Shown here: in pieces, positions 1 to 19,909 of the stretch
Layout of the letters: each line of letters begins with the position of its first letter
Numbering within the stretch: position 1 is the first letter of the stretch
DNA from: a virus
Taxonomy: Duplodnaviria; Heunggongvirae; Uroviricota; Caudoviricetes
DNA length: 21,476 nucleotides
Direction: 5' to 3' (one strand)
Virus record (IMG/VR): IMGVR_UViG_2526164632_000013
The notes under the pieces: model-generated
Seen by the model: only the letters and a program-made list of their open reading frames with translations
Database searches by the model: none
Told to the model about the DNA's origin: nothing
Program-made: the position numbers and the translations under genes

Positions 1-1
1 G

Positions 2-340
2 CCCACCGACATCACCACGGAAGCCCTGCAGCGTATCGGTGAACTGTATGCCATAGAGGCAGAAGTCCGGGGATGTACAGCAGAACAGCGTCTGGCGGCA
101 AGAAAAGCCAGAGCTGCGCCACTGATGCAGTCACTGTATGACTGGATACAGACTCAGATGAAAACACTGTCGCGTCACTCGGATACGGCAAAAGCGTTCG
201 CATACCTGCCGAAACAGTGGGATGGCCTGAACGTGTACTGCAGTAATGGCTGGGTGGAAATCGACAACAACATCGCAGAGAACGCCTTACGGGGAGTGGC
301 CGTAGGCCGGAAAAACTGGCTGTTCGCGGGTTCCGAGTAA
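2..340 (+). pseudogene. IS66-family transposase (orfC/TnpC) C-terminal fragment; 5' end outside window, 3' end cut by the adjacent IS
   Basis: Frame opening at base 2 (no stop until 338-340) reads ...[17 protein letters not shown]...[16 protein letters not shown]...[25 protein letters not shown]. It shares blocks ([38 protein letters not shown]) with the C-terminal part of the intact 512-aa TnpC at 1214-2752 but stops about 50 codons early, at the GTAAGCG terminus of the next IS. Confidence 0.75.
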
Positions 341-365
341 GCGTCGTCTCAGCACCGTCTGGCAG
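337..365. repeat. IS66-family left terminal inverted repeat (imperfect)
   Basis: GTAAGCGT... matches the reverse complement of 2761-2789 over the first 8 nt, with further matching blocks (CAGCA, CCGT) when gapped; alignment done by eye. Confidence 0.5.
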
Positions 366-479
366 ATCCTGAAATTCCTGAGAGAATAGTGGACACCAAA
401 TATGGTGGACGCTATCCATGAAATCATTAACCGCAGTGCGTAAAAAAGCCCTAATTATCCCGTTGAGTTCAAAATCAAA

Positions 480-821
480 ATGGTTGAACTCTCGCATCGA
501 CCAGAGATCTCCGTAGCGCAACTCGCTCGTGAGCATGGGATCAACGATAATTTGCTGTTCAAGTGGCGCCAGTACTGGCGCGAAGGAAAACTACGTCCTC
601 CTTCAACAACAGAAAACAACGTGCCTGAGCTGCTCCCGATAACACTTGATGCCGAAGATGTTGTCCCTACAACCTCCCCCCGGTCACAACCTGTAGCTGC
701 TGCGACACCTGAATCACTCAATATCAGCTGTGAAGTGACGTTCCGGCACGGATCACTCCGTCTGAATGGTGCCATCAGCGAAAATATCCTGAACCTGCTG
801 ATACGGGAGCTCAAACGTTGA
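480..821 (+). CDS. IS66-family accessory protein orfA (TnpA)
   Basis: 113-aa ORF, first gene of the IS; MVELSHRPEISVAQLAREHGI... looks like a helix-turn-helix N-terminus. An in-frame stop at 441-443 means no longer N-terminus is available. Confidence 0.75.
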   Translation: MVELSHRPEISVAQLAREHGINDNLLFKWRQYWREGKLRPPSTTENNVPELLPITLDAEDVVPTTSPRSQPVAAATPESLNISCEVTFRHGSLRLNGAISENILNLLIRELKR

Positions 822-1165
822 TCCCATTACCATCAGGGACAAAGATCTGGCTGGTCGCTGGCATCACCGATATGAGAAACGGCTTCAACGGCCTGGCGGC
901 AAAGGTGCAGACGACGCTGAAAGACGATCCGATGTCAGGTCACGTTTTTATCTTCCGTGGGCGTAATGGCAGTCAGGTAAAGCTCCTCTGGTCTACCGGC
1001 GATGGACTGTGTCTGCTGACCAAACGGCTGGAGCGCGGCCGCTTCGCCTGGCCGTCAGCCCGGGATGGCAAAGTGTTCCTCACACCGGCACAGCTGGCGA
1101 TGCTGCTGGAAGGTATCGACTGGCGGCAGCCTAAAAGACTGCTTACGTCCCTGACTATGTTGTAA
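818..1165 (+). CDS. IS66-family orfB (TnpB)
   Basis: 115-aa ORF with a TTG start overlapping the orfA stop (TTGA), suggesting translational coupling; N-terminus IPLPSGTKIWLVAGITDMR as in IS66 orfB proteins. Confidence 0.8.
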   Translation: MIPLPSGTKIWLVAGITDMRNGFNGLAAKVQTTLKDDPMSGHVFIFRGRNGSQVKLLWSTGDGLCLLTKRLERGRFAWPSARDGKVFLTPAQLAMLLEGIDWRQPKRLLTSLTML

Positions 1166-1213
1166 GCCTCTTTATCCTGGTCGACGCTGAATGAGCCTGG
1201 TAATATACCCGGT

Positions 1214-2752
1214 ATGAGCAGCTCACTTCCTGACGATATCAATGCACTGAAACGTCTCCTTGCCGAACAGGAGGCGCTGAACCGTGCCCTGCTGGAAAAG
1301 CTGAACGAGCGTGAACGCGAAATAGACCATCTGCAGGCACAGCTGGATAAGCTGCGCCGGATGAACTTCGGCAGCCGCTCCGAAAAAGTCTCCCGTCGTA
1401 TCGCACAGATGGAAGCTGACCTGAAGGCACTTCAGAAAGAAAGTGATACCCTTACCGGTCGGGTTGACGACCCGGCCGTGCAGCGCCCGCTGCGTCAAAC
1501 CCGCACCCGCAAACCGTTCCCCGAATCACTCCCCCGCGATGAAAAACGGCTGCTGCCGGCAGCATCATGCTGCCCGGAATGTGGAGGCTCACTGAGCTAT
1601 CTGGGTGAGGATGCCGCCGAACAGCTGGAGTTGATGCGCAGCGCCTTCCGGGTTATCCGGACTGTACGTGAAAAGCATGCCTGTACTCAGTGCGATGCCA
1701 TCGTGCAGGCCCCCGCGCCTTCACGGCCCATCGAGCGGGGTATCGCAGGACCGGGGCTGCTGGCCCGCGTGCTGATCTCAAAGTATGCAGAGCACACCCC
1801 GCTGTACCGCCAGTCTGAAATGTACGGCCGCCAGGGCGTGGAGCTGAGTCGTTCACTGCTGTCGGGCTGGGTGGATGCATGCTGCCGGCTACTGTCACCG
1901 CTGGAAGAAGCGCTTCAGGACTATGTGCTGACTGACGGTAAGCTCCATGCTGATGACACGCCTGTCCCGGTGCTGTTGCCAGGCAATAAGAAAACGAAGA
2001 CCGGGCGGTTATGGACCTACGTTCGTGACGACCGTAACGCCGGGTCAACGCTGGCGCCGGCGGTGTTGTTCGCTTACAGCCCGGACAGAAAAGGCATCCA
2101 TCCGCAGACCCATCTTGCGGGGTTCAGTGGTGTACTGCAGGCGGATGCATACGCCGGGTTCAACGAGCTGTACCGGGATGGCCGGATAACGGAAGCCGCC
2201 TGTTGGGCTCACGCCCGCCGTAAAATCCACGATGTGCACGTTCGCACCCCGTCAGCCCTGACGGAGGAAGCGCTGAAACGGATCGGCGAACTGTACGCCA
2301 TCGAGGCAGAGATAAGGGGAATGACGGCGGAGCAGCGCCTTGCCGAACGTCAGTTGAAAACGAAACCGCTGCTGAAATCCCTGGAAAGCTGGCTGCGTGA
2401 AAAGATGAAAACCCTGTCGCGACACTCAGAACTGGCGAAAGCGTTCGCATACGCCCTGAACCAGTGGCCGGCGCTGACGTACTATGCAGATGATGGCTGG
2501 GCTGAGGCGGACAATAACATCGCTGAAAATGCGTTGCGGATGGTCAGTCTGGGCCGCAAAAACTACCTGTTCTTCGGTTCGGATCATGGAGGAGAGCGGG
2601 GAGCGCTGCTGTACAGCCTGATCGGGACGTGCAAACTGAACGGAGTGGAGCCAGAAAGCTACCTCCGCTATGTCCTTGACGTCATAGCCGACTGGCCGAT
2701 AAACCGGGTCGGCGAACTGCTCCCCTGGCGCGTAGCACTGCCGACTGAATAA
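1214..2752 (+). CDS. IS66-family transposase orfC (TnpC)
   Basis: 512-aa ORF with N-terminal coiled-coil/leucine-rich region, CPECGG...C..C zinc-finger-like motif, and a long catalytic region; homologous to the fragment at 2-340. Confidence 0.9.
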
Positions 2753-2760
2753 CACATCCC

Positions 2761-2789
2761 CGTCAATACGGTTCTTGCTGCACGCTTAC
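2761..2789. repeat. IS66-family right terminal inverted repeat (imperfect)
   Basis: ...CTGCACGCTTAC ends at 2789; its reverse complement GTAAGCGTGCAG... pairs with 337-365. Confidence 0.5.
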
Positions 2790-3300
2790 GGTAATCCGAA
2801 GAAGAAAATACAGTGATCGACGGCCAGCCAATCTTCAGGAAGGAGCCGTCAAGAAACATTTTATCGTGGACGTTGTTGTCATTACGGGAAGGACTGAGGC
2901 GCTTGCTGACCTCCGGACTGTGGCGAAACGTTCTGGAAAGACGCGTTCTGGAATGCTCACGCGCCTTCGTCTCAGTCATCTGCACCACCAGCATATCCGC
3001 CGGATCACAGATGATGCCGTACACAATCCAGCCATCAATCAGCCCTTCGGTTTTCCCGGTTCGCGCAGGTCCCACAAACACCACCGCGTCATATTCACGG
3101 GCTGATAATGTATTAATGGGGTCAATCATATAGGGCGTCAACGATGACTCCCACGGACCGGAAGTATTGGCTCCCCGTGGTACCCGCATATAACGCCTGA
3201 TGGCTTCCGCTACTGGTAACCGGCTGGGTGGGCGAAACAGCGAGGCCACTTCGCGCCAGATATCGGATGCGCGGCTATGGCTCTCGTTCACCTGATTCAC
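2790..3300 (-). pseudogene. Terminase large subunit (lambda gpA-like), N-terminal about 170 codons only; truncated by the IS66-family element
   Basis: GTG start at 3300 overlaps the small-terminase stop (GTGA). N-terminus MNQVNESHSRASDIWREVASLFRPPSRLP... and the ATPase-like VFVGPARTGKTE block resemble lambda gpA as recalled. The frame then runs into IS sequence at 2789 and stops at 2668. Confidence 0.75.
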
Positions 3301-8515: not shown

Positions 8516-8963
8516 GAATCCTCCCGGCCGGGATAATATTGTGAGTAAAATGAGGAGCGGGCTGAAGTCCGGAAGTTACAGGACAATGGCAGAAGAGAGA
8601 CAACAGCCCGCAATACGAAAAAGGCCGCGCTATTGCGCAGAGTGATTACTGTCGGATATTATTCGCCAGCTGAAATATTACTTCACGTTTTGTTGTTTAT
8701 TCCTTGCCGCCCGCGTCTCCCAGCGCGGGCTTTTTTTGTCCATAAGAAAGCCCCTCCGGAGAGGGGCTGGAGAGTGGCGCTATGTGCCATTGCATGGTGC
8801 CGGGTGCCTCCCGGTGAATTCAGTACCAGCACCTGAATCCGCGATTATCCCATATACCTACTCGCTGATTGCCCCTCCGCACAGGGGGATTCACCATGCC
8901 AGTTTCTTTTAACAAACTCCCCGCAAAACAGACAACTGTCAACCGTCTGAATTGTGAGACATT

Positions 8964-9003: not shown

Positions 9004-9080
9004 TGGCGCGTTGTACTGGATTCGAACCAGTGACCGATTGCTTAGAAGGCAATTGCTCTGTCCGGCTGAGCTAACAACGC
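9004..9080 (-). tRNA. argO: tRNA-Arg (anticodon UCU)
   Basis: Manual fold: acceptor GCGTTGT/ACAACGC, anticodon stem ATTGC/GCAAT, loop CTTCTAA (anticodon TCT), T-arm GGTTCGAATCC, discriminator G, CCA encoded. Symbol assigned by position, following the ileZ-argN-argO order of Stx-phage late regions. Confidence 0.85.
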
Positions 9081-9093
9081 ATGATGCAGATAA

Positions 9094-9170
9094 TGGACCG
9101 CCATCGGGGACTTGAACCCCGCGCAGCCAGCTTCGAAGGCTGGCGCTCTTTCCTGATGAGCTAATAGCGG
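9094..9170 (-). tRNA. argN: tRNA-Arg (anticodon UCG by manual fold)
   Basis: Acceptor CCGCTAT/ATGGCGG (one G-U pair), anticodon stem CCAGC/GCTGG with loop CTTCGAA (anticodon TCG), T-arm GGGGTTCAAGTCCCC, CCA encoded. Symbol by position only. Confidence 0.75.
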
Positions 9171-9177
9171 TATGTGA

Positions 9178-9253
9178 TGGTGGCCCTTGCTGGATTTGAA
9201 CCAGCGACCTGGCGATTATGAGTCGCTCGCTCTCACCACTGAGCTAAAGGGCC
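9178..9253 (-). tRNA. ileZ: tRNA-Ile2 (anticodon CAU, AUA-reading ileX/ileZ-like)
   Basis: GGCCCTTTAGCTCAGTGGTGAGAGCGAGCGACTCATAATCGCCAGGTCGCTGGTTCAAATCCAGCAAGGGCCACCA is near-identical to E. coli ileX as recalled; anticodon loop CTCATAA. Confidence 0.85.
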
Positions 9254-13255: not shown

Positions 13256-13507
13256 TTATTCTTCTGAAAAAGCAGAAAAGCCAGCTTTTATTCCGATCTC
13301 TTTCAGTGCCTGTAATGAAGTGACAAACTCACCTTCGCGCAAGATAAATCCGTCTGTCACTCGACCATCCACAAAATTAATTAACGCAGCCCCATTCTTT
13401 CGCAAACACACAATGCGGTAATGACTAACAATATTTCCATTTTCAACGCACACAGCATAGAGGCCATCTTCACAAAAAATTTTACGCAGTTCTTCGATGT
13501 TCATCAT
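13256..13507 (-). CDS. Hypothetical protein, Rem-like by size and position
   Basis: 83 aa, directly downstream of hok as rem is downstream of hokD in K-12 Qin; GGAAGGA Shine-Dalgarno. Family not confirmed by sequence. Confidence 0.55.
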   Translation of the reverse strand: MMNIEELRKIFCEDGLYAVCVENGNIVSHYRIVCLRKNGAALINFVDGRVTDGFILREGEFVTSLQALKEIGIKAGFSAFSEE

Positions 13508-13723: not shown

Positions 13724-13879
13724 TTACTCCTCAGGTTCGTAAGCTGTGAAGACAGCGACCTCCGTCTGGCCGGTTCGGATTCGTACCTCGCAGAGGTCTT
13801 TCCTCGTTACCAGTGCCGTCACTATGACGGTTAAACAGATGACGATCAGGGCGATTAACATCGCCTTTTGCTGCTTCAT
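13724..13879 (-). CDS. hok: Hok/Gef-family type I toxin (HokD/RelF-like)
   Basis: 51 aa MKQQKAMLIALIVICLTVIVTALVTRKDLCEVRIRTGQTEVAVFTAYEPEE, the Hok family signature; AAGGAG Shine-Dalgarno. An in-frame upstream ATG (13936) with its own Shine-Dalgarno gives a 70-codon mok-like frame. Confidence 0.85.
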   Translation of the reverse strand: MKQQKAMLIALIVICLTVIVTALVTRKDLCEVRIRTGQTEVAVFTAYEPEE

Positions 13880-14090
13880 AGCCTGCTTCTCCTTGCCTTT
13901 CGGCGCGTAAGAGGCTAACCTACGTTTGTGAAGCATAGATTGGGCCTCAGATTAATGTTAAGCGTCTTGCAGGACGCGTAATGTTAACTGGGGCTTTTCT
14001 CTGTCTGCCTTACGGTGGCATGCCCGAGGCAGACAGCCTCAAGCACCCGCAGCAATTCTACTTAACTCCCGTCACCTCGCCAATATAAAA

Positions 14091-14250: not shown

Positions 14251-15282
14251 CTACCAATCAATAAAATCAGTGATGTTATCCAACCTAATTACAGTAACTT
14301 CCCGTCTCAACTGGTTTTTCCAATATATCTCACGAGCGTTTTGTTCACCAGCACCGCTCCACTCAATTACTCTTAAAGGCTTAGAGGTTAGGTAAGGTCG
14401 AATAAGCAGGTTAAGGTGAATATCGAGACCAGAGTAACCAAACAATATTATTTCTTCTGATTCAAATAATGCAAACTGCAAATAATCCCAGTACGTAGAA
14501 AGAACATTAGATGCTGCTATAACTGACGGTTTTCTTTTTATATGAGTTAACACTATATGCTCACTAGGTTCATCTATGTCAAGAGTAAGTTGTGAGCGTG
14601 AAAGTTTTAAAACATTTTCATGCTGATTAATAAATAGTGGTGAACCATGCAAGTGCAAATAATAACCAAACCTACGATTGTATTTCCGTTCGAGCGCTGC
14701 AGAGGAAAATCCGTGGCTTAGCATCCCATCAACTAAAACCCCATCATACCCGTTGAATATATCATTATCTATGAATGAATTGTATAATAATTTGTCATAG
14801 TTTAATGTCGCGATATGTGAGTGTGTGTTCTTTACAAACTCCACAAGCGCATTTTCGAATCTTTGTGGCAAACCTTTATCGTAATTATGCAACCTGGTTG
14901 CAACTTTGTGAATATAAGTGGCGGTAATTTTGGGGAAGTTTAGTCCATCTTCAGTAAGCCAATGCACGTTCCCCTCTCCAATTTGAGCAAGAGCTTTACA
15001 ATATGTGACAGCCTGGTGAAGGGTATCCAACTCATGTTCTCCTTCTGGTGGACCTTGCCGCTGAAGACAACGCTCGATAAGTTGCTTGTGGATATCTTTT
15101 AAAAAATTGGGGCGATGCCAAATTTCTTCCAACGCTCTGTCTAAGGAGAAGTGAGCAGGATCTAAAGCCATACCGAGACCGTTGCCGAATATTATTAATT
15201 TTCTTGCCATATAGGGGGACTCATATTGGAATAACGCTGGATAGCGTCGCGCGATACGCTTAAGTTTAGGATTAATAGACAT
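14251..15282 (-). CDS. Standalone SIR2-like (SIR2_2-type) protein, candidate NADase defence effector
   Basis: 343 aa with the ordered motif set of defence-type SIR2 domains as recalled from ThsA: IIFGNGLGMA (Gly-rich NAD loop), IATLNYDKLL (TNYD-type, putative catalytic Asn161), YYLHLHGS (putative catalytic His212), ILFGYSGLD. No other domain. The gene and its 370-bp upstream region are visibly AT-rich compared with flanking phage genes (not computed). Confidence 0.8.
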   Translation of the reverse strand: MSINPKLKRIARRYPALFQYESPYMARKLIIFGNGLGMALDPAHFSLDRALEEIWHRPNFLKDIHKQLIERCLQRQGPPEGEHELDTLHQAVTYCKALAQIGEGNVHWLTEDGLNFPKITATYIHKVATRLHNYDKGLPQRFENALVEFVKNTHSHIATLNYDKLLYNSFIDNDIFNGYDGVLVDGMLSHGFSSAALERKYNRRFGYYLHLHGSPLFINQHENVLKLSRSQLTLDIDEPSEHIVLTHIKRKPSVIAASNVLSTYWDYLQFALFESEEIILFGYSGLDIHLNLLIRPYLTSKPLRVIEWSGAGEQNAREIYWKNQLRREVTVIRLDNITDFIDW

Positions 15283-17118: not shown

Positions 17119-17566
17119 TAGCTTTTTCTATAAGCTCGTCAGTCTCACGTTCCACAACAGATGGATCCGCAAAAAGCAGCCCGGACTCCACCACATCACC
17201 ATATTCTTTGTTTAACCCGGCGATCATGTACGTAATGCTTTTTCCGTCAGTAATTTCACAATACAACCTGAAATCGCTGATCCGGATAGCCTCCATAATT
17301 GCCGGAATCAGCGCCGTGAATTTTTCCCGCTTATCCCTGGTGTCGATAGCTTTCCAGCGTTCGAATATCTTCACCCGGTTAACGCCCAACGCCCGTTGAT
17401 CAACCTCGCCATCATTAAACGTGACGCGTTGAACATCGATGTTCGGGCGTTCTTTCAGAGCCCAGAATGCTTCCGTGATTAATATCGTCGCCTGCTCCTG
17501 TGTCATTCCTGGTCGGCATACCCAGGCATCCAGAGCCTCACAAACCTGTTCAGGGGTGATTTTCAT
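17045..17566 (-). CDS. Hypothetical early protein (cII-position gene)
   Basis: 173 aa; ATG start overlaps the end of the cro-like gene by 17 nt; family not recognised. Confidence 0.55.
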   Translation of the reverse strand: MKITPEQVCEALDAWVCRPGMTQEQATILITEAFWALKERPNIDVQRVTFNDGEVDQRALGVNRVKIFERWKAIDTRDKREKFTALIPAIMEAIRISDFRLYCEITDGKSITYMIAGLNKEYGDVVESGLLFADPSVVERETDELIEKAIAFKHAYRQQYQQKAGWNYEPSFC

Positions 17567-17777
17567 TGTTCAACCGCCCCGCCCGCTTTGCCTTACGATA
17601 TTCGTCATAAACTTTGGGGTCGTACTGAAGTTCCCCGCCGGATGCCTCTTGCAGGCGCATCGCGCGACCTTCAGGAACCAGTTCCCCCCATGCAGCAACA
17701 CTTGCCAGTTTCACTCCTGCGGCATTGGCAAGTTTTGTTTTGCTGCCAAAAAAAGTAATTGCGTCAACTTTAAGCAT
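17550..17777 (-). CDS. dicC: Cro-like regulator (DicC-like)
   Basis: 75 aa from the ATG at 17777 (a TTG one codon upstream gives 76); GAGGGGG Shine-Dalgarno; divergent from the DicA-like repressor; size as recalled for DicC (76 aa). Confidence 0.75.
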   Translation of the reverse strand: MLKVDAITFFGSKTKLANAAGVKLASVAAWGELVPEGRAMRLQEASGGELQYDPKVYDEYRKAKRAGRLNNENHP

Positions 17778-17780
17778 CAA

Positions 17781-17857
17781 AGCCCCCTCTTGTTAGATAT
17801 TCCTAACAGTAATGTGCGCGGGATACCTAAGTCAAGAAAAATTAGAATTACCTAACT
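17781..17857. promoter_or_regulatory. Divergent dicA/dicC control region with operator-like inverted repeat TGTTAG-N6-CTAACA
   Basis: 77-bp intergenic region between divergent regulator genes; inverted repeat at about 17792-17809; same half-site as the sites downstream of dicA. Confidence 0.5.
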
Positions 17858-18265
17858 ATGGATACAAGAACCCTAGGCCAGCGAGTTCTGGCACGACGAA
17901 AAGAATTACGCCTAACACAACGAGAAGCTGCACGCCTCGCTGGGGTAGCTCACGTCACAATTTCACAATGGGAAAGAGACGAAACCCAACCGGTCGGGAA
18001 GCGGTTATTTGCTTTAGCTGATGCGCTGAAGTGCTCGCCTACATGGCTAATGTTTGGTGACGAAGACAAGGCACCAGTGCCAGCACAAGAACTTCATGTG
18101 GAAACCGAGTTAACTCCCAGCCACAAAGAATTGATCGAATTATTCGATGCTCTTCCCTCCTCCGAGCAGGAAGCCTTACTGTCTGAAATGCGCGCAAGAG
18201 TAGAGAATTTCAATAAACTCTTCGAAGAAATGCTTAAAGCACGTAAAAACAAATCAATAAAATAA
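17858..18265 (+). CDS. dicA: XRE-family HTH repressor (DicA-like)
   Basis: 135 aa; HTH LRLTQREAARLAGVAHVTISQWERDETQP; C-terminal ...SPTWLMFGDEDK...MRARVENFNKLFEEMLKAR resembles DicA as recalled; 135 aa is the size recalled for DicA. Confidence 0.8.
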   Translation: MDTRTLGQRVLARRKELRLTQREAARLAGVAHVTISQWERDETQPVGKRLFALADALKCSPTWLMFGDEDKAPVPAQELHVETELTPSHKELIELFDALPSSEQEALLSEMRARVENFNKLFEEMLKARKNKSIK

Positions 18266-18296
18266 CACTCCTTTCAGATACTTAGATTCCCTCACT

Positions 18297-18355
18297 CTTT
18301 TTGTTAGACCAATCTAACAAAAATACTTGCTACATTTGTTAGGTTATTCTAAATT
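18297..18355 (+). promoter_or_regulatory. Promoter/operator of the dicB operon
   Basis: Perfect palindrome TTGTTAGA-ccaa-TCTAACAA (18301-18320) and a further TTTGTTAG (about 18335-18342) overlapping a sigma70-like promoter TTGCTA-N17-TAAATT (18327-18355), just upstream of the ydfA-like gene. Confidence 0.55.
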
Positions 18356-18432
18356 AATCTCCACCAAGACACCGCACGGTGTTCTCAGCAAACAGTTCCG
18401 CTACCCCGGCGTTAAGGGGAAATGAGGTCAGC

Positions 18433-18588
18433 ATGAATACTATCGATCTTGGCAACAACGAATCTCTGGTATGCGGCGTGTTTCCCAACCAGGACGGCAC
18501 GTTTACCGCGATGACGTATACCAGAAGCAAAACGTTTAAAACCGAAAATGGTGCCCGTCGCTGGCTGGAAAGAAACTCAGGTGAGTGA
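18433..18588 (+). CDS. ydfA: YdfA-like small protein (first gene of dicB operon)
   Basis: 51 aa from the ATG at 18433 (TGAGGT Shine-Dalgarno); size and position match ydfA of K-12 Qin as recalled; sequence MNTIDLGNNESLVCGVFPNQDGTFTAMTYTRSKTFKTENGARRWLERNSGE. Confidence 0.65.
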   Translation: MNTIDLGNNESLVCGVFPNQDGTFTAMTYTRSKTFKTENGARRWLERNSGE

Positions 18589-18589
18589 T

Positions 18590-18718
18590 ATGGATTTCGA
18601 CACAATCATGGAAAAGGCTTACGAAGAATACTTCGAAGGCCTTGCCGAAGGCGAAGAAGCTCTCAGCTTCAGTGAGTTTAAACAGGCGCTTTCCAGCTCG
18701 GCAAAATCTAACGGCTGA
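18590..18718 (+). CDS. ydfB: YdfB-like small acidic protein
   Basis: 42 aa MDFDTIMEKAYEEYFEGLAEGEEALSFSEFKQALSSSAKSNG; ATG 1 nt after the ydfA-like stop (TGATATG); not in the ORF track (under 60 aa); 42 aa is the size recalled for YdfB. Confidence 0.6.
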   Translation: MDFDTIMEKAYEEYFEGLAEGEEALSFSEFKQALSSSAKSNG

Positions 18719-18747
18719 TAAGCGAAGCAGCACCGCGAGGAATCAGT

Positions 18748-18966
18748 ATGCAGAAACGAGAACCCGTCATCATCTCGCCAGACTATACCGATGATGAACT
18801 TTATGAGTGGATGCGCCAGAAAATTAATGCAGCGCAGGATCTGAAATGGGCCAATGAAGCCAGGGCTAAGCAGGCTGAAAATCTGTCCGCTCTGGAGCAG
18901 GATATCACCAGGCTGGAAAAAGCAGCGGCATTAAGCATTGCCAGAATGATTACATACCCGCGTTAA
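18748..18966 (+). CDS. ydfC: YdfC-like protein
   Basis: 72 aa; GAGG Shine-Dalgarno; size and order match ydfC as recalled. Confidence 0.6.
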   Translation: MQKREPVIISPDYTDDELYEWMRQKINAAQDLKWANEARAKQAENLSALEQDITRLEKAAALSIARMITYPR

Positions 18967-19306
18967 TAGCTAACCAACGAAGCTAAGGTTGGTAATTAAG
19001 GAGTTCTCCACGGGTGAGGTGGAGTGCGTGCGCCGGACATGGGTGAGCATCCGGCACTGACAGTTTACTGAAAGGATATTTCCATGAAAAGTCAGACCAT
19101 AACGCGAAAGCGCACGGCGAGGTAGCTGGTTCATAGATAGCCTGTCGTTAAATTTTCGTCGACCGTGCGCTTCCGGTTGTGGCACTCCGCGAAATGGCGC
19201 GGCGGTAAGTATGGCGGGGTTATTCCTTCCCCGTTGAGGACACCGGGTTGTCAGGTTGACCATACGCTTAAGCGACAACCCCGCTGCAACGCCCTCTGTT
19301 ATCAAT

Positions 19307-19364
19307 TTTCTGGTGACGTTTGGCGGTATCAGTTTTACTCCGTGACTGCTCTGCCGCCGTTTTT
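19307..19364 (+). ncRNA. dicF: DicF small regulatory RNA (ftsZ-targeting)
   Basis: TTTCTGGTGACGTTTGGCGGTATCAGTTTTACTCCGTGACTGCTCTGCCGCC followed by GTTTTT matches the 53-nt DicF sequence as recalled; lies in a 570-bp non-coding gap between the ydfC-like and dicB-like genes, as in Qin. Confidence 0.8.
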
Positions 19365-19532
19365 AAAGTGAATTTTGTGATGCGGTGAATGCGGCTGAGC
19401 GCACGCGGAACAGTTAAAACCAAAACAGTGTTATGGGTGGATTCTCTGTATCCGGCGTTAATTGTTAACTGGTTAACGTCACCTGGAGGCACCAGGCACC
19501 ACATCACAAAATTCATTGTTGAGGACGCGATA

Positions 19533-19721
19533 ATGGAAACGTTATTACCAAACGTTAATACGTCTGAAGGTTGTTTTGAAATTGGTGTCACTATCAGTAA
19601 CCCTGTATTTACTGAAGATGCCATTAACAAGAGAAAACACGAACGGGAGCTATTAAATAAAATATGCATTCTTTCAATGCTGGCCCGTTTACGTCCGATA
19701 CAAAAAGGATGCTGGCAATGA
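19533..19721 (+). CDS. dicB: DicB-like cell-division inhibitor
   Basis: 62 aa METLLPNVNTSEGCFEIGVTISNPVFTEDAINKRKHERELLNKICILSMLARLRPIQKGCWQ; GAGGA Shine-Dalgarno; immediately downstream of DicF; 62 aa is the size recalled for DicB. Confidence 0.75.
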   Translation: METLLPNVNTSEGCFEIGVTISNPVFTEDAINKRKHERELLNKICILSMLARLRPIQKGCWQ

Positions 19722-19909
19722 ATACAGCATTTGCACTTGTTCTGACAGTTTTTCTTGTTTCCGGAGAGCCAGTTGATATTGCAGTCAGTGTTCACAGGAC
19801 AATGCAGGAGTGTGTGACTGCAGCAACCGAACAGAAAATTCCCGGTAACTGTTACCCGGTCGATAAAGTTATTCACCAGGATAATAACGAAATCCCGGCA
19901 GGTCTTTAA
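19718..19909 (+). CDS. ydfD: YdfD-like small membrane/lysis protein
   Basis: 63 aa MNTAFALVLTVFLVSGEPV... with an N-terminal hydrophobic segment; ATGA overlap with the dicB-like stop; 63 aa is the size recalled for YdfD. Confidence 0.7.
   Translation: MNTAFALVLTVFLVSGEPVDIAVSVHRTMQECVTAATEQKIPGNCYPVDKVIHQDNNEIPAGL

Follow-up and report, generated by a model that had tools for sequence, protein, structure and literature searches.

In lambdoid immunity switches the Cro protein uses the operators of the repressor, and in phage P22 these operators are 18-bp inverted repeats with an uninformative centre and the half-site ATTTAAG. The closest described relative of the locus studied here is the DicA/DicC switch of the Qin prophage of Escherichia coli K-12, for which operator sequences in both intergenic regions were first proposed in 1988 (PMC10448788). 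DicA binding to the 20-bp operator Oc (TTGTTAGTCATAACTAACAA) of this switch was shown by an in vivo repression assay and was lost upon a single A-to-C change in CTAACA; Oc is the only K-12 DicA operator experimentally shown to bind DicA, while the sequence-predicted Om and Oa were reported, as data not shown, to have no DicA binding (PMC3441716). Oc overlaps the -10 of the dicC promoter, and DicA on Oc represses dicC and is required for dicA transcription (PMC3441716). On dicCp the annotated DicA site extends from -8 to +12 (bioRxiv 10.1101/2025.05.13.653802), and plasmids carrying Oc are counter-selected (PMC3441716; bioRxiv 10.1101/2025.05.13.653802).

The second K-12 promoter, dicBp, lies upstream of ydfA; its activity rises 22-fold upon deletion of dicA and is unaffected by deletion of dicC (PMC10448788). 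The antirepressor Rem relieves DicA repression in a RecA-independent manner, and dicBp is not induced by mitomycin C (PMC10448788). By analogy with lambda, dicCp has been equated with PR and dicBp with PL (PMC10448788). In DicC ChIP-seq the strongest signal was found at the dicA locus, where a pair of sites flanking dicA was deduced, and the DicC motif is palindromic, TT(A/C/T)G...C(G/A/T)AA (PMC11430063). A 2020 survey rated the DicA site at dicB as 'low-evidence' with location 'unknown', and its regulator table lists DicA as a repressor of dicA too (PMC7567609).

The prophage and its immunity region

The window, i.e. the whole stretch of 21,476 nucleotides analysed here, is 100% identical to a lambdoid prophage beside yccA in E. 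coli FDAARGOS_1059 and belongs to the Qin-like lambdoid prophages of E. coli. The identical genome is annotated with an IS66-family element, ISEc22, that splits the large terminase gene (window about 418-2752 and 1-3300), so the prophage is defective. Relative to NZ_CP066032.1 a single-base indel shifts the coordinate offset by one base between ydfA and dicB (window 18588-19533). Rfam matches were STnc100, three tRNA genes and the sok antitoxin RNA (8738-8928, 9007-9253, 13874-14048), and a gene for a SIR2-family protein (about 14251-15210, minus strand), lying between hokD/sok and the replication genes, may be anti-phage defence cargo. The genes that matter for the switch are as follows.

13256-13507, minus strand: rem, antirepressor homologue ('protein Rem' in the identical genome's annotation, offset 1501 applied)
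17550-17777, minus strand: dicC-like gene for a Cro-type regulator (Pfam P22_Cro, E 1.9e-13; 83% identical to K-12 DicC)
17858-18265, plus strand: dicA-like repressor gene, 135 aa (HTH_3, E 1.2e-14; 57% identical to K-12 DicA)
18433-19909, plus strand: putatively controlled operon ydfA-ydfB-ydfC-DicF-dicB-ydfD (annotation of the identical genome, Rfam, K-12 comparison)
18433-18588, plus strand: ydfA (annotation of the identical genome)
18748-18966, plus strand: ydfC (annotation of the identical genome)
19308-19359, plus strand: DicF RNA (Rfam, 72.5 bits)
19533-19721, plus strand: dicB (product 89% identical to K-12 DicB)
19718-19909, plus strand: ydfD (product 94% identical to K-12 YdfD)

The names used in the first-pass annotation of this DNA (a dicA-like and a dicC-like gene with a dicB operon downstream) are upheld by these domain matches, the K-12 identities and the Rfam hit to DicF. 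The identical genome labels the dicC-like gene 'Cro/CI family transcriptional regulator'; a YdaT-family gene comes after dicC and rem lies further left, the Rem product giving no family in a Pfam search. In the 135-aa repressor the Pfam search found helix-turn-helix (HTH) domains alone and no peptidase domain. Residues 1-71 match the structures of P22 C2 (1adr, E 1.2e-18; 2r1j, E 3.5e-18), and Q21, V33, S36 and Q37 of the P22 C2 alignment are retained, with H32 in place of N32. K-12 DicA has identical residues at all five positions, which fits a half-site common to both alleles.

The window locus is an allelic member of the known DicA/DicC switch. It has the K-12 gene order (dicC, divergent dicA, then ydfABC-dicF-dicB-ydfD), the same half-site TTGTTAG/CTAACAA, the same distances of four sites from the gene ends, and a repressor and a Cro-like protein of the same families. 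Judged from the genes alone, both marks of the Qin type, a short repressor lacking a self-cleavage domain and a rem gene, are found in this prophage. The two loci differ in that the window repressor is only 57% identical to K-12 DicA, the DNA of the immunity region has diverged, and the prophage sits beside yccA rather than at the Qin site. Two parts of the DNA show about 93% identity to K-12 Qin, one being the 3' portion of dicC and the other beginning at about 18369; the divergence between them spans the 5' half of dicC to just beyond the dicBp -10, as expected of an exchangeable immunity cassette. Conservation inside this divergent segment is concentrated in the TGTTAG and CTAAC blocks.

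More distant systems share the logic. In lambda, as here, the repressor and Cro genes diverge around one operator region, and a second operator cluster lies on a promoter downstream of the repressor gene that drives early genes in the same direction; the window differs in its HTH family and operators, in having one strong site only in the divergent region, and in lacking SOS cleavage, induction being expected via the Rem antirepressor. P22 C2 is related through the homologous N-terminal DNA-binding domain (E 1.2e-18) and a partner protein of the P22_Cro family, and the 18-bp inverted repeat with an uninformative centre known from P22 is also seen in the window operators. Unlike P22 C2 and the related 434 system, the window has the half-site TGTTAGA, a 135-residue repressor with no LexA-like self-cleavage domain, and no triplet of evenly spaced strong operators on either side.

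Operator-like sites and candidate promoters

All three sites share one geometry, with a 6-base half-site on each side of a 6-base spacer, and we searched for it across the prophage as the first-pass annotation had proposed. The exact pattern TGTTAG-N6-CTAACA occurs twice in the 21.5-kb window, versus a mean of 0.00 in 100 shuffles. When up to two mismatches were allowed, five matches were found versus 0.63 expected (0/100 shuffles reached five), three of them within the 575-bp region 17781-18355. The three sites with a shared half-site claimed around the dicA-like gene are all present, and the shuffles exclude chance. With three mismatches there was no enrichment (11 matches versus 6.59 expected), and TTGTTAG alone, which is weaker evidence, was modestly enriched (6 versus 2.33). 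No additional site with up to two mismatches was found in regulatory regions of a 40-kb stretch of the identical genome. Another two-mismatch match (9059-9076) sits in a tRNA gene, probably by chance. The sites and candidate promoters are listed below.

17790-17809: operator 1, cTTGTTAG-ATATTC-CTAACAg, 0 mismatches to the pattern; homologue of K-12 Oc
17808-17835, minus strand: putative dicC promoter, -35 TTGACT (17830-17835), 16-nt spacer, ATTACT at the -10 position (17808-17813)
17840-17857: operator look-alike (K-12 'Oa'), AATTAG-AATTAC-CTAACT, 3 mismatches, abutting the dicA ATG
17843-17848, plus strand: putative dicA -10 TAGAAT, within the look-alike and ending 9 nt before the ATG
18298-18323: operator 3 (second site), perfect 26-bp palindrome TTTTTGTTAGA-CCAA-TCTAACAAAAA, core 18302-18319
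18327-18355, plus strand: putative dicBp, TTGCTA (18327-18332)-N17-TAAATT (18350-18355)
18337-18354: operator 4 (third site), TGTTAG-GTTATT-CTAAAT, 2 mismatches, covering the promoter spacer and -10

Operator 1 is the inverted repeat already noticed between the dicA- and dicC-like genes, although its 18-bp core (TGTTAG-ATATTC-CTAACA) occupies 17791-17808, one base to the left of the approximate 17792-17809 first quoted; the 7-base half-site TTGTTAG is at 17790-17796. An alignment with known DicA operators, also suggested at that stage, showed that operator 1 matches K-12 Oc column for column while the DNA around it has otherwise diverged. This operator of the Oc type (type motif TTGTTAG-N6-CTAACAA) overlaps the putative dicC promoter with the same placement relative to the conserved -35 TTGACT. 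We placed this promoter after the K-12 5'RACE result, in which Oc overlaps the -10 (PMC3441716); dicC transcription would then start near 17801, operator 1 covering -8 to +12. The -35 is conserved in nearly all relatives (AGTCAA on the plus strand), whereas the -10 is poor in the window subtype and weaker than that of K-12: ATTACT, the commonest variant of the allele having AATAAT (27 collected loci). The dicC promoter of this subtype may be weakened, or its start moved by 2 nt. A further difference from K-12 is that the middle site Om is unrecognisable, the best match in the divergent region of the window being 7/12.

The look-alike before the dicA ATG was considered as a true operator and rejected: it is unchanged in relatives with other half-sites, and K-12 Oa is reportedly without DicA binding (PMC3441716). 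Its position is conserved among relatives, but those with TTGAG or TAACT half-sites keep TTAAGAT or TTATATT at this place, showing no covariation, and every relative, whatever its operator type, has a TAnnnT hexamer 6-9 nt ahead of the dicA ATG. By its sequence and place the look-alike is probably the -10 of the dicA promoter, which would explain both the lack of DicA binding at K-12 Oa and the fact that a dicA promoter was not recognised earlier. No Shine-Dalgarno sequence precedes the ATG of the dicA-like gene, and the arrangement suggests a dicA mRNA that is leaderless or nearly so, as lambda cI mRNA from PRM is. The presumed dicA -35 region (about 17820-17825) adjoins the -35 of the dicC promoter, and one may speculate that DicA 'activation' of dicA is relief of promoter competition.

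Downstream of dicA, two putative repressor sites flank or cover a candidate promoter between dicA and ydfA, ahead of ydfABC-dicF-dicB-ydfD. The perfect palindrome TTGTTAGA-CCAA-TCTAACAA described at 18301-18320 was exactly confirmed and extends to a perfect 26 bp that stops 3 bp short of the -35; its core has 0 mismatches to TGTTAG-N6-CTAACA, whereas the K-12 counterpart is degenerate (TGTTAG-CTATAG-CATACA). The element TTTGTTAG noted in the promoter spacer is present at 18335-18342, but rather than a lone half-site it belongs to a whole degenerate 18-bp operator, the right half of which falls on the -10. Both downstream sites align with TGTTAG sites of K-12 that lie at equal distances. The centres of operators 3 and 4 are separated by 35 bp or about 3.3 helical turns, which does not put them obviously in phase for cooperative binding, and nothing above 7/12 was found in the window for a third operator at dicBp.

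The hexamers and 17-bp spacer of the promoter itself are present, but calling it a good sigma70 promoter was an overstatement, each hexamer matching at 4/6 positions (8/12 in total), and a promoter scan with a threshold of 9/12 reported nothing at TTGCTA-N17-TAAATT. The argument for dicBp comes from its conserved position rather than its score: TTGnnn-N17-TAnnnT was found at the homologous place in most relatives examined, and the version TTGACG-N17-TAAATT from a Bacillota MAG, scoring 9/12, was picked up by the scan. We also back-calculated the K-12 start from the RNase III cut 'between positions 813 and 814' and the 190-nt DicF species, which gave about position 2364 of locus L001, a few bases from the predicted start; the origin of that numbering is unstated, so this was not relied on. 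In the 5' leader of the operon, where near-identity to K-12 resumes, a small inverted repeat ACACCG-CA-CGGTGT (18369-18382) was observed, and Citrobacter-type relatives have a different hairpin at its place. The leader folds no better than shuffles, and no known RNA family was found in the promoter/leader region in Rfam at E up to 1.

Conservation and covariation with the repressor

Species genomes supplied 21 loci for the comparison, and viral contigs another 80. Positions were compared among E. coli K-12, E. albertii, E. ruysiae, Citrobacter, Rahnella and Symbiopectobacterium loci whose repressors have the helix-turn-helix TQR...[AS]HV[TS][IV]SQWE. In all of those examined except Symbiopectobacterium, sites of the TGTTAG-N6-CTAACA type were found at two places before dicA (start -67/-68 and start -18) and at two behind it (stop +36 to +42 and stop +71 to +77); in Symbiopectobacterium (L011) the start -68 site alone remains by the positional criterion. 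The operator 1 position, start -67/-68, is thus shared by all relatives with the same recognition helix, and the spacing between the counterparts of operators 3 and 4 is always 35-36 bp.

For the entropy calculation, 30 different sequences from upstream and 49 from downstream were used. Mean entropy was 0.04-0.30 bits in half-sites versus 0.73-0.98 in spacers and 0.57-0.67 at the remaining intergenic positions. For operator 1 the half-sites had 0.04-0.07 bits versus 0.98 in the spacer, and for operator 3 0.12-0.18 versus 0.97; the left half-site of operator 4 had 0.14 bits. Conserved half-sites with variable spacers are the pattern expected of a dimeric HTH protein. A lack of half-site conservation in homologous prophages had been named beforehand as an outcome that would speak against the sites; when the comparison was run, the half-sites were nearly invariant across about 100 loci.

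The repeated hexamer also changes with the repressor. Loci with TQR...[AS]HV[TS][IV]SQWE repressors have TGTTAG 2-5 times each. With other helices TGTTAG is absent (one locus has a single copy), and a different hexamer is repeated at the same places:

Helix S[HY]A[TS]ISLWES: hexamer TGTTGA
Helix SG/DSSISLWES: hexamer TGAGTT (TTGAG...CTCAA)
Helix SSVSVFKWE: hexamer TAACTT
Helix SHVTIFKWE: hexamer TTAACT
Helix 3 of the window type with a P22-like helix 2 (SQAALGKMV): hexamer CTTAGG

The last row, represented by L007, combines a window-type helix 3 with CTTAGG half-sites and shows that helix 3 alone does not set specificity. As a comparison of sequences, this covariation of helix and half-site is the strongest non-experimental argument that the repressor reads the repeats. 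Three enterobacterial-type DicA loci (L008, L012 and L013) stood under MAGs named Collinsella, Bacillota and Veillonella parvula; all three are probably misbinned contigs, L008 being almost identical to K-12 Qin.

Proposed switch and competing readings

We consider it likely, with a probability of roughly 0.85, that the sites are operators of a Qin-type (DicA/DicC) lambdoid immunity switch that represses dicC and the dicB operon. This reading builds on the presence, significance and conservation of the sites, their covariation with the repressor and the homology of operator 1 to K-12 Oc, while binding by the window allele, the promoter positions and the regulatory outcome are taken over by homology. 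A dimer of the 135-residue repressor would read each 18-bp site as two inverted TGTTAG half-sites around the uninformative 6-bp spacer. Bound to operator 1, over the -10 and start of the leftward dicC promoter, it would silence dicC and the genes behind it; in K-12, transcription of dicA depends on DicA at the corresponding operator. On the other side, operator 4, on the spacer and -10, and operator 3, just upstream of the -35, would bracket and cover the rightward promoter; taking an assumed start near 18362, they are centred near -16 and -51, respectively. Repressor on both would exclude RNA polymerase and turn ydfABC-dicF-dicB-ydfD off, so that neither the division inhibitors (DicF, DicB) nor the lysis protein YdfD would be made. 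The Cro-like DicC, which probably uses the same sites as the repressor, would flip the switch through them, and Rem from the same prophage would be the inducer that relieves repression. The first-pass proposal that DicA represses both divergent promoters and the dicB operon agrees with K-12 data for dicC and dicB (PMC3441716, PMC10448788) but is only half right on the divergent promoters, as K-12 DicA activates dicA (PMC3441716), although PMC7567609 lists it as a repressor there; its view that the sites define a switch over DicF, DicB and YdfD is supported by the operon genes, K-12 homology and site conservation.

The reading that comes nearest to this one, though we regard it as unlikely, is that the sites chiefly serve the Cro-like DicC, with the DicA-like repressor acting at operator 1 alone. 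It would account for the fact that binding by DicA in K-12 was demonstrated for Oc alone (PMC3441716), and that the sole in vivo occupancy data downstream of dicA concern DicC, whose motif fits TTAG...CTAA (PMC11430063). Against this, K-12 dicBp responds to the loss of dicA with the 22-fold increase and to the loss of dicC with no change (PMC10448788), and it is the DicA homologue whose helix-turn-helix changes together with the half-sites. Moreover, lambdoid switches share operators between both proteins, which makes DicC binding a complement to the repressor reading more than its rival. That the repeats are random matches in AT-rich intergenic DNA is barely credible: it could draw on the 3-mismatch pattern not being enriched and the modest enrichment of TTGTTAG alone, but the exact and near-exact matches far exceed shuffles, the positions are conserved across genera, the half-sites are conserved while the spacers vary, and the repeats covary with the repressor.

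A further possibility concerns the palindrome at 18298-18323, which might act as an RNA hairpin that terminates or stalls dicA transcripts before they reach the toxic operon, instead of or besides being an operator. It lies 33 nt past the dicA stop codon with an 11-bp stem, an 80-nt stretch containing it folds at -13.7 kcal/mol (z -2.8), and the terminator scan offered no other site between dicA and the promoter. However, the stem has only two G-C pairs and is followed by A5 (AAAAAUAC) rather than a U run, and the scan has no site at 18298-18323 either; as a Rho-independent terminator, which calls for a G+C-rich stem and a U run, the palindrome was rejected. The K-12 copy loses the symmetry (CATACA) and retains TGTTAG, the half-site recurs at operators 1 and 4, which are incapable of such a hairpin, and the sequence of the stem is conserved beyond mere pairing. 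We therefore hold a hairpin function to be improbable, even more so than the DicC reading. The idea that TGTTAG-type alleles alone lack a terminator was also dropped: hairpins seen by eye in L017, L007 and L012 were not supported by the scan, which found no site after dicA in the window (18266-18326), K-12 or any of these three loci. If the palindrome is an operator, as we prefer, it may in addition be a repressor roadblock keeping dicA transcripts out of the toxic operon.

These results leave the accepted picture of the DicA/DicC system unchanged and add three points to it. The repressor sites at the dicB-operon promoter, given as 'unknown' in location for K-12 (PMC7567609), are placed to the base by comparison; the table of helices and half-sites gives a short series of natural changes in specificity within the P22 C2 family; and 'Oa' is reinterpreted. 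It is possible, but rather doubtful from the sequences at hand, that DicA-type repressors with as little as 57% identity and one half-site form a single immunity group across several enterobacterial genera; in that case, one prophage would, through its repressor or its Rem, respectively shut down or switch on the division-inhibitor operons of other Qin-like prophages resident in the cell. The analysis places the switch that would keep DicF, DicB and YdfD silent in a DicA allele: the window allele was found in 566 of 5426 complete E. coli genomes (about one in ten), and the K-12 allele in 851. In E. coli B laboratory strains (the BL21 derivative Rosetta2-DE3 and NEBExpress) the repressor allele and its operators are those of the window (about 91% identity) rather than those of K-12.
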